A stretch of 64,000 bases of DNA from Escherichia coli. Its GTDB lineage: Bacteria; Pseudomonadota; Gammaproteobacteria; Enterobacterales; Enterobacteriaceae. A program made the translations under genes and the position numbers. The stretch lies in the NCBI RefSeq assembly GCF_003991155.1, contig NZ_CP031293.1. One strand, written 5' to 3'. How positions within the stretch are numbered: position 1 is the stretch's first letter; every line of letters starts with the position of its first letter. Positions 54,717 to 57,700 of the stretch are shown here, one piece after another. The notes beneath the pieces are model-generated. The model was not told the origin of the DNA. It was given only the letters and a program-made list of their open reading frames with translations, and ran no database searches.

Positions 54717-57700
54717 TCAGCTGATACTGATGCCTGCGGTGGCTTTCTTCATCACCACAACCAGCAAATCGCTGATACTTGCTGTGGGATACCAGCCATT
54801 TACCAGCCATGCCGATACAGAAAATTCCAGTGTCATGACACCACTGCCTGCAGGCATATCAATAACACCCGTATATATCAGCGTATTATCCAGAGCCGTT
54901 CGGTTATAAATTTCAGCACCGTTTTTTCGTACTATCAGACGGCATGAGGAGTAGATATCAGTATGATCTTGCTCATGTTTAGCGCCACTGAATGCCACCG
55001 CCGGGATAACAATTTGCCGGTCAAACGGCTGATCGTCATAAACCCTGACGGTAATGGTTCCTGATGGCCACCGCTCCGGTGCACGGGAGTCCCGGGGGAA
55101 AGCTTTGCCCACCGTTTTAACAATATCGCCTTCAATCTGGTTGGCTGACAGTTTTCCCAGAATCCGGCAGTTCTGATTAATCGTGACATTGTTGAGCGTC
55201 CCGGAGTTCGCATTCACGTTACCGCTGATATCGGCATTTTTCGCCGTCAGCCGCCCGTCCGGTGTCAGGGAAAATGCCGGAGGATTACCGCCGCTGGTAA
55301 TGGTGGGAGCCGTCAGGTATTTCAGGAACACTTCGTTCATGAATATCTGATCGCCCTGACCAACAAACATCGGCTTTGTGTTGCCATTCGCAGGATTAAT
55401 CATCGCAATCCTGTCTGCCGCCAGCAGCACCTGACTCTGCATGCCGTCAGGGGTGTTTTCAATACCGGCACCAATACCCGCGATATAAAGGCGTCCGTCC
55501 TGCATCTGCTGCAGCTTCACAGCCCACATGCTGTTCAGGTTATTATTTGTATCAACCTGAACCTTCTGTATCTGCTGGATCGCTGCACTCTGGTCTTCCA
55601 GTTTCTTATTGACGGTCTGCGTGATTTCATTACTGACATCCGTGATGGACGTTCTGATTTCCGCCAGGTCAGGCGCAAGCTGACCGTTATCAATCTGCGT
55701 CCACAACTCCTGAGCCAGATGGGTTTTCCCTATCTCTCCTTTGAAAAAATCCAGATAGCCGGATGCATCATCACTCGGCTGGCCAACAGCCTCCACGAAT
55801 GCCGATTTGCCAACGGTGTTCACACTGCGGATGTAAAAATAATAATCATGGCCCGGCCTGATATTGATACTGGCAGCTATCCAGTACAGCGCCGTGCCAA
55901 GATAGCGCGCTGTGGTTTCAACCTGTCTGATATCCGCAATCCGCTTTTCCGAGAACCAGAACTCAAACTGTACCGTCGGGTCATAAACGGCAAGATGCGG
56001 CGTGGCGGTGATCTGAAAATAGCCCGGCGTCAGCTCAATCTGTGACGGCGCTGCCGGTGCGGCAATCCGGAACGATACCGATGCAGGATCGCCCTGCTGT
56101 CCCCACGCATTTACCGCCCGGACTGTCAGCCTGTAGTTCCCCAGCGCCAGTTGCGTGAAGCGGTATGTGGTTTCCGCCGTCCGGGCCGTGCTGACCAGCC
56201 GCTCACTGCCGTCATCCGCTGCCACGGTCAGGCGAAGCATGAAACTCACGCCCTTCACCACCTTCGGCGTGTCCCAGCGGGCCAGTACCTGATACTCCCC
56301 GCTGTCTGCGGTGACTTCGGCAGTCAGGTGCTGCACCGCTGGCGGCGTGACACCATTCACCGTGCCGCTCTGGTCGCCGTCAAAGTGCGCCCCGTTATCC
56401 ACGATGGCTTCTTTTTCCGGTACATGCTGCACGGCGGTGATGGCATACGTGCCGTCGTCGTTCTCACGGATACTCACGCAGCGGAACAGGCGCTGGCGCA
56501 GCGTCGGCAGCTTCAGCCCCCACACGCTGTATTCGGCTATCCCGTCAGGAAACCGGCTCACTTTCACCTTCACGCCGTCGGTGACGGACTGGACTTCCAC
56601 GCTGACCGGATTGCCCTGCCCGTCAACCAGGCTTATCAGCGTGGTACCGGAGGATGGCAGCGTGATTTCACGGTCGAGCGTCAGCGTCCGGGTCTGGCTG
56701 TTCACCGCCAGCACGCGCCCGCCAATGCTGATCCCCGCATAGTCATCATCGCAGATTTCAATAACATCACCCGGTACATGGCGAAGCCCTTCTGCGCCGA
56801 CGCTGAAATCCACGGTCTGCGTTTCCAGCAGTTCTGTTTTAATCAGCCACAGCCCGGCGCGGTGTGCCTGCCCCCGGCTGGTACAGCCAAAGGCATCCAT
56901 CTTCGTGACGTTACGACCGTAACGGGCAATGGCCTGCGTGTCCTCCACAAGCTCTGTCGCCGTCTCCCAGCCGTTATTCGGGTCAATCCAGTTCACCTCA
57001 ACGGCATTATGACGGTCCTTCAGGGCGCTGAAGCTGTAGCGGAACGGCGCGCCATCATCCGGCATCACCACATTACTACGGTTATAGGTCCACACCTTAT
57101 CCGATGGCCGGTCCTGCACGAACGTCAGCGTCTGCCCGTTCCATACCGGCATACAGCGCATCGCCGAGCAGAAATCACTGAGCACATCCCACGCCTTGCG
57201 CTGCGTGGTCAGCCAGGCATTACAGGTGATGCGCGGCTCCGTGCCACCAAAGCCATCCGGCACCGACTGGTCGCAATTCTGGCCGATGACATACAGCGCC
57301 CATTTGTCCACATCCGCCGCACCGAGACGCTTCCCCATGCCGTAGCGCGGATGGGTCAGCATATCCCACAGACACCAGGCCATGTTGTTGCTGTATGCCG
57401 GTTTAAACGTCCCGTCCCAGATACCGCTGTATTGCCGCGTCTGCGGGTTATAGTTCGACGGCACCTGCAGAATACGCCCGCGCAGATGATAATTACGGCT
57501 CACCTGCTGGCTGCCGAACTGCTCCGAGTCCACCTGCACGCCGACCAGTGCCGTGTTCGGGTAGCACTGTTTCACATCGATGATTTCGGTGTATGACGAC
57601 CAGAGCGTTTTGTTCTGCAGCTGGTCTGTGGTGCTGTCCGGCGTCATCCTGCGCATCCGGATATTAAACGGGCGCGGCGGCAGGTTATCCACCACCACTG

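Follow-up and report, generated by a model that had tools for sequence, protein, structure and literature searches.

For lambdoid phages, and for delivery particles derived from lambda, the receptor-binding end of the J protein sets which Escherichia coli strains can be entered. In phage lambda, gpJ's trimeric receptor-binding domain (RBD) places four bottom loops in the LamB trimer; the base opens, the beta-prism twists, the shaft flips and the tip opens (Ge & Wang 2024, whose names for the shaft and fibre domains are followed here). In the work of Maddamsetti et al., position 1107 of lambda J is critical for the gain of OmpF function and position 997 is a recurrent substitution site on the route to OmpF. 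Variation in natural J homologues, in indels as well as in amino acids, has four peaks, and positions 1048/1049 and 1107 belong to them. Phage 21 natively uses LamB, gains OmpC by a single mutation in J and then OmpF.

The C-terminal part of lambda gpJ has been exchanged for natural variants to escape the dependence on LamB, and the resulting chimeras A8 and 1A2 use OmpC (Brödel et al. 2024, Nature, PMC11338833). Particles carrying 1A2 deliver DNA into a ΔlamB ΔompC strain only if OmpC is supplied in trans, with an outcome that varies by OmpC allele. MG1655 ΔlamB ΔompC cells served as recipients, each with a plasmid for one of 23 OmpC variants: for 20 of the 23, delivery reached 76-99% at the highest dose, while it was at most 2% for the variants G1 (the MG1655 allele, K-12), G2 and G40 (PMC11338833). 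A8, on the contrary, accepts the OmpC of K-12. The RBD of A8 is 80% identical to that of phage 21, yet the first uses OmpC and the second LamB; hence, the choice of receptor is labile among lambda-type J RBDs. A follow-up preprint describes the EDL933 OmpC, and not LamB, as what 1A2 recognises, and applies 1A2 to target O157 strains. In PDB 9wcb, A8 gpJ is seen in the open state together with the EDL933 OmpC. The mechanism itself has been demonstrated for lambda with LamB and for A8 with OmpC.

The window analysed here, a stretch of 64,000 nucleotides of E. coli DNA (contig NZ_CP031293.1), contains an intact gene for a lambda-type central tail fibre protein J, which is a recombinational mosaic (Table 1). 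Six Pfam models are recognized in the protein, all above their curated cut-offs and in the expected order. The region singled out in an earlier note on this DNA, 54717-55250, corresponds to the last 177 codons and the stop codon of the J ORF, and the peptides quoted there are present. Upstream of J lie K-like ORFs (JAB and NlpC/P60) and gene I (Lambda_tail_I); downstream follow a terminator-like hairpin, lom (Ail_Lom) and a side tail fibre gene with a tail-fibre N-terminal domain. The gene order K, I, J, lom, stf is that of lambda. The hairpin, identified by a pattern scan, combines 8 base pairs with a 4-nt loop and the T-run TTTTTATT; phage 21 has an annotated terminator in the corresponding position 3' of J. 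The likely start of lom is M18 of the listed ORF, where RefSeq annotates a gene of 600 nt. E. coli strain 2016C-3878 (NZ_CP029747.1) carries the final 18,284 nt of the window at 100% identity; its annotation names the gene gpJ (WP_061092795.1), and its copy of the prophage adjoins ompT and envY.

Table 1. Features of the J gene, of its product and of the region immediately downstream, in nucleotide positions of the window and residues (aa) of J.
Feature	Position in window	Residues of J	Strand	Basis or remark
J gene (tip attachment / host specificity protein J)	54717..58196	1-1159	minus	Intact 3480-nt ORF, 1159 aa + stop
FNIII-A_GpJ		86-207		Pfam
Phage-tail_3		330-496		Pfam
Ig_J		610-714		Pfam
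Ig_J_second		716-818		Pfam
Phage_Tail_Tip (PF09327), central straight fibre (beta-prism)	55197..55583	872-1000	minus	Pfam, E = 9.7e-32
Ig_GpJ_C (PF12421), C-terminal RBD	54720..55112	1029-1159	minus	Pfam, E = 4.8e-37
Lambda-like body: hub domains and two FNIII/Ig domains	55737..58196	1-820	minus	Identity to lambda J
Core of the alpha-helical-shaft block, non-lambda	55497..55736	821-900	minus	36.5% identity to lambda J, 28 gap columns
Segment equivalent to the swapped module of gpJ 1A2	54720..55220	993-1159	minus	Junction in the 1A2 DNA
Terminator-like hairpin with a T-run after it, between the stop codon of J and lom	54679..54698		minus	Pattern scan
lom (Ail/Lom outer-membrane protein), downstream of J	54050..54649		minus	Pfam Ail_Lom, E = 2.4e-127, residues 18-216

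The integrity of the gene bears on a rival explanation of its divergent end, namely decay in a defective prophage whose J has lost its function as an adhesin. In favour of decay, the prophage occupies the locus where K-12 carries the cryptic prophage DLP12, and remnants of tail-fibre assembly genes are present at the distal end of the prophage. However, the ORF runs uninterrupted over all 1159 codons, with all six Pfam domains present, and the last 177 codons differ from those of the J gene of VT1-Sakai by 26 synonymous versus 10 non-synonymous codon differences. With an intact ORF and an excess of synonymous changes, the gene shows no sign of decay. The identical protein is found on 377 public contigs, and the same C-terminal 339 residues are encoded by the deposited phage PhiR46_1. 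Decay is thus extremely improbable.

Compared with lambda J (NP_040600, from NC_001416), the first 600 residues are 97.8% identical and residues 601-820 are 94.5% identical, which amounts to 25 substitutions over residues 1-820. The identity falls to 36.5% in the core of the shaft block, returns to 74.4% over residues 901-990 and decreases again to 64.3% over residues 991-1032 and 40.9% over residues 1033-1159. The earlier note had claimed that about 900 N-terminal residues match lambda while the last 150 or so do not. The second part of this description holds, the value of 40.9% being far below the 94-98% of the body; the first is too generous, as the high identity already stops near residue 812. 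A second non-lambda block, at residues ~813-940, had been overlooked. It contains an alpha-helical shaft that is 27-28 residues longer than the one of lambda.

Despite this divergence, the C-terminus is homologous to that of lambda: the two can be aligned end to end with one 1-residue gap, and the lambda gpJ chains of the PDB are matched at E ~1e-96. The alignment reveals no C-terminus of high identity to lambda; the protein end is divergent yet homologous. Lambda J (PDB 8xcj with LamB, 8xck and 8iyk) shares the family, the domain order and the fold of the RBD with the window J, and binds LamB. The RBD of the window is not the LamB-binding allele of lambda; the biggest differences are located at loops around lambda residues 1012, 1048, 1077 and 1107.

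When the last 185 residues were modelled with AlphaFold2, the pLDDT was mostly 80-96 over the RBD, and a Foldseek search with the model retrieved 8xck and 8xcj of lambda and 9wca and 9wcb of A8 at E ~1e-17. As modelled, the RBD has the Ig-like fold of the solved lambda and A8 gpJ fibres. Four variable loops are placed near residues 1036-1043, 1072-1081, 1100-1106 and 1130-1137; for the lambda loops L1-L4, the indel hot spots that Maddamsetti et al. mapped were taken as the guide. Indels relative to lambda are limited to the four loops, and their positions coincide with the lambda 1012/1048/1077/1107 hot spots. The substitutions are not: in the model, 33 of 90 strand residues and 20 of 41 loop residues are identical to lambda, and the divergence spans the whole RBD. 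The idea that only the loops differ from lambda was dropped for this reason.

The boundaries of the mosaic are visible in a 60-nt sliding window. The identity to lambda falls at residue ~812 and again after residue ~1000, while the identity to phage 21 breaks at residue ~1033, the start of the Pfam RBD. VT1-Sakai is 82-100% identical across the RBD windows and PhiR46_1 is 95-100% identical throughout J. The same picture emerges from megablast against phage genomes, where many lambdoid phages, phage 21 included, match nucleotides 1-3100 of J at ~95.5% and then stop. These breaks divide J into a lambda-like body (residues 1 to ~812), a shaft and fibre of the type of phage 21 and many prophages (~813-1032) and an RBD of the VT1-Sakai, O157-prophage type (~1029-1159). 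Over the RBD (residues 1029-1159), the identity is 94.7% to VT1-Sakai, 58.1% to phage 21, 55.1% to A8 and 40.2% to lambda. Phage 21 has the same long shaft and fibre, with 92-100% nucleotide identity up to residue ~1033. The RBDs of phage 21 and A8 have the same fold, but their loop 2 is longer by 5 residues and their loop 1 is shorter.

The closest deposited phage is Escherichia phage PhiR46_1 (PV340565). From residue 821 onwards its J protein is identical; the N-terminal 820 residues are 97-98.5% identical, with a few substitutions, and the gene order of lom, stf and the downstream region is the same as in the window. The host is given as ECOR13; a literature search on PhiR46_1 and the set of phages hosted by ECOR13 yielded nothing relevant, receptor data included. 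The OmpC binders 434 and Stx2a phage WGPS6 belong to the same family and fold class. They are only ~50% identical over the last 185 residues, however, and have other loop lengths, and they form a separate RBD lineage. For this reason, the OmpC-dependent Stx2a siphophage phi330 (PMC12502783) was discarded as evidence from a natural phage: its closest relative WGPS6 has a 434-type end, 50% identical, which makes phi330 uninformative on the RBD type of the window. The J end of Fels-1 is 51% identical. With the J proteins of HK97 and of phi80, the latter standing for the phi80/N15 type of J end, the last 185 residues share no similarity detectable by BLASTP (E = 2.1 and 0.57, respectively). A diversity-generating retroelement was considered as the source of the variation in the RBD and rejected, since a search of positions 49000-64000 of the window for repeats of the J 3' end, direct or inverted, that could serve as template yielded none.

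This type of RBD is already known and catalogued and has been used in engineering. The sequence itself has entries in RefSeq, among hundreds of assemblies and in one deposited phage. The J protein is an exact match to RefSeq WP_061092795.1, and the 90%-identity cluster to which it belongs, named "host specificity protein J", has 34,633 members. Of 5,426 complete E. coli genomes, 3,364 contain a counterpart of the last 534 nt of J at 80% query coverage or more, at a median of two places per genome. Sorted by nucleotide identity, 70 complete E. coli replicon records carry the 3' segment at 99% or more, 169 at 95-99% and 2,562 at 90-95%, or ~2,800 records at 90% or more. Among the matches listed, O157 prophages, long-tailed Stx1a and Stx2a phages, JLK-2012 and 2G7b have the same RBD type, with ~94% identity over the last 177 residues. 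A large protein search with these 177 residues mostly returned partial J fragments of E. coli; it supplied Pfam labels and rows for the alignment used in the structure prediction.

The closest functional relative is gpJ 1A2. Its DNA (supplement of PMC11338833) reads as lambda J as far as ...NADISG, where a recoded module takes over. The DNA text was machine-read and contained indels, and it was therefore aligned with a frameshift-tolerant routine. At 154 of the 159 readable codons, the module matches the J gene of VT1-Sakai (AP000400); the five mismatches, one of which is a stop codon, are attributable to damage during machine reading. The 534-nt end of J, which takes in the RBD and the final turns of the overlying fibre, nearly coincides with the swapped module. 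Over the 167 residues of the module, the window J differs from the 1A2/VT1-Sakai module at 10 positions (~94% identity), with no indels in the RBD and equal loop lengths: Q1008E, I1012V, I1025L, Q1076K, D1077E, T1109S, S1118H, V1120H, G1134N and S1157T. Direct comparison with the 1A2 DNA gives nine clear differences and one in a damaged codon, in agreement with the protein alignment. The proteins also differ outside the module, as 1A2 keeps the short helical shaft of lambda while the window J has the longer one. The J of VT1-Sakai is annotated as truncated by mutation.

As the 1A2 module is OmpC-dependent and ~94% identical, a receptor other than LamB is expected for the window J. The porin is most likely OmpC. 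The earlier note had read the divergent end as a sign of a different receptor specificity, and this reading gains support from a module of ~94% identity that works in ΔlamB cells (PMC11338833). The divergence alone would not suffice: the RBD of phage 21 is just 44% identical to that of lambda, and phage 21 is nevertheless reported as a LamB user, so that a receptor switch is not proven by distance. One could hence suppose that the window RBD, a member of the same Pfam family with the same fold, still binds LamB like lambda and wild-type phage 21, its divergence reflecting drift or adaptation to LamB alleles. With 40% identity to lambda and 58% to phage 21, the RBD is nevertheless far from both LamB users, while the 94.7%-identical RBD of 1A2 acts without LamB and its activity is set by the OmpC allele (PMC11338833). 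Continued use of LamB is thus highly unlikely.

By analogy with 1A2, the window allele probably accepts OmpC alleles found in nature, for instance the O157/EDL933 type, and probably not the one of K-12. It is assumed that the protein would act through the steps described for lambda, with OmpC as the porin. A J trimer at the tail tip would put the four variable bottom loops of its three Ig-like RBDs into the extracellular mouth of the trimeric porin. After opening of the RBD base, the fibre would twist and the shaft flip, and the tail tip would open to eject the DNA.

The similarity to 1A2 is not complete. I1025L, Q1076K, D1077E and G1134N correspond to lambda positions 997, 1048, 1049 and 1107, sites at which lambda is known to change its receptor use, and two further differences lie inside the conserved MPAGxGx motif. 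With four of the ten differences at host-range hot spots, the set of accepted OmpC alleles may differ from that of 1A2. An OmpC-binding RBD with another allele range, or with an additional porin such as OmpF, is a possibility to be kept in mind, though the less probable one. In its favour, the four substitutions fall at hot spots of receptor change or natural indels, and A8 and 1A2 are already specific for particular OmpC alleles. Most of the RBD is identical to 1A2, however, several of the changes are conservative (I/V, I/L, D/E, S/T), and nothing ties these residues to OmpC contacts in a 1A2-type RBD. That the hot-spot substitutions may have moved the allele off OmpC, towards another outer-membrane protein, or may have added a second porin, seems rather unlikely. 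If this were true, the allele would be a natural counterpart of the receptor shifts obtained in the laboratory with lambda and phage 21. OmpC remains the favoured receptor.

The finding is real but ordinary, and the window adds no new principle. RBDs of the 1A2 type are very common in E. coli prophages. The fact that 1A2 takes most natural OmpC alleles and not the one of K-12 may explain the absence of this RBD type from the classical lambdoid phages, which were plated on K-12. The window allele would be at most a natural variant that can be compared with 1A2 for mapping the specificity for OmpC alleles.

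Besides its receptor-binding end, the tip attachment protein J departs from lambda J in a second block, which forms the alpha-helical shaft. Between residues 821 and 900, the alignment with lambda J gives only 36.5% identity with 28 gap columns, the shaft of lambda J being 27–28 residues shorter. The long-shaft block is common to phage 21, the O157 prophage VT1-Sakai and the deposited phage PhiR46_1. Since the lambda shaft flips and in part refolds on receptor binding (Ge & Wang 2024), a longer shaft might alter the triggering geometry of J. At the receptor-binding end (window ~54795–55124), residues 1025, 1076, 1077 and 1134 account for four of the ten amino acid differences with the VT1-Sakai allele, equivalent to that of the engineered chimera gpJ 1A2. 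In the alignment, they correspond to lambda positions 997, 1048, 1049 and 1107, which are hot spots of receptor shifts in laboratory evolution and of natural indels. Several further ORFs of 60–140 aa, known as reading frames alone, also overlap J.

Features of J and of the downstream prophage region
Feature	Position	Strand	Remark
Second non-lambda block of J (alpha-helical shaft)	window 55377–55760	minus	J aa ~813–940; alignment with lambda J
481-aa ORF, antisense within J	window 56151–57596	plus	known as reading frame alone
Terminator-like hairpin and T-run	window 54679–54698	minus	between J stop codon and lom
stf, side tail fibre gene	window 51613–53991	minus	792-aa ORF without interruption
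Two small ORFs downstream of stf	window 50618–51613	minus	
Class I SAM-dependent methyltransferase gene	window 49453–50121		distal prophage end, between 75-nt repeats
75-nt direct repeat, copies 88% identical	window 49179–49253 and 50221–50295		flanks methyltransferase gene
ParA/ParB partition genes	PhiR46_1 (PV340565) 11372–12534		just past tail fibre region; annotation

The gene following J, lom, probably starts at 54649, the listed ORF beginning 17 codons further upstream. The predicted hairpin is consistent with lom being a separately expressed moron.

Further downstream, stf contains a 189-nt tandem duplication (53014–53391, copies 84% identical), as well as Ala/Ser/Thr-rich repeats. In the identical DNA of E. 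coli 2016C-3878 (NZ_CP029747.1), the RefSeq annotation splits this gene into three fragments, two of them flagged as incomplete pseudogenes; this looks like an artefact due to the repeats. The arrangement beyond stf differs from the stf-tfa pair of lambda: stf is followed by two small ORFs, one of 93 aa without Pfam match, the other of 234 aa with a Peptidase_S74 (endosialidase chaperone) domain (Pfam, E = 3.9e-6). Remnants of tail-fibre-assembly genes are annotated by RefSeq at the distal prophage end, and the methyltransferase gene may be cargo between two tfa remnants. For PhiR46_1, whose J has the same C-terminal end, the annotated partition genes hint at a plasmid-like prophage lifestyle.
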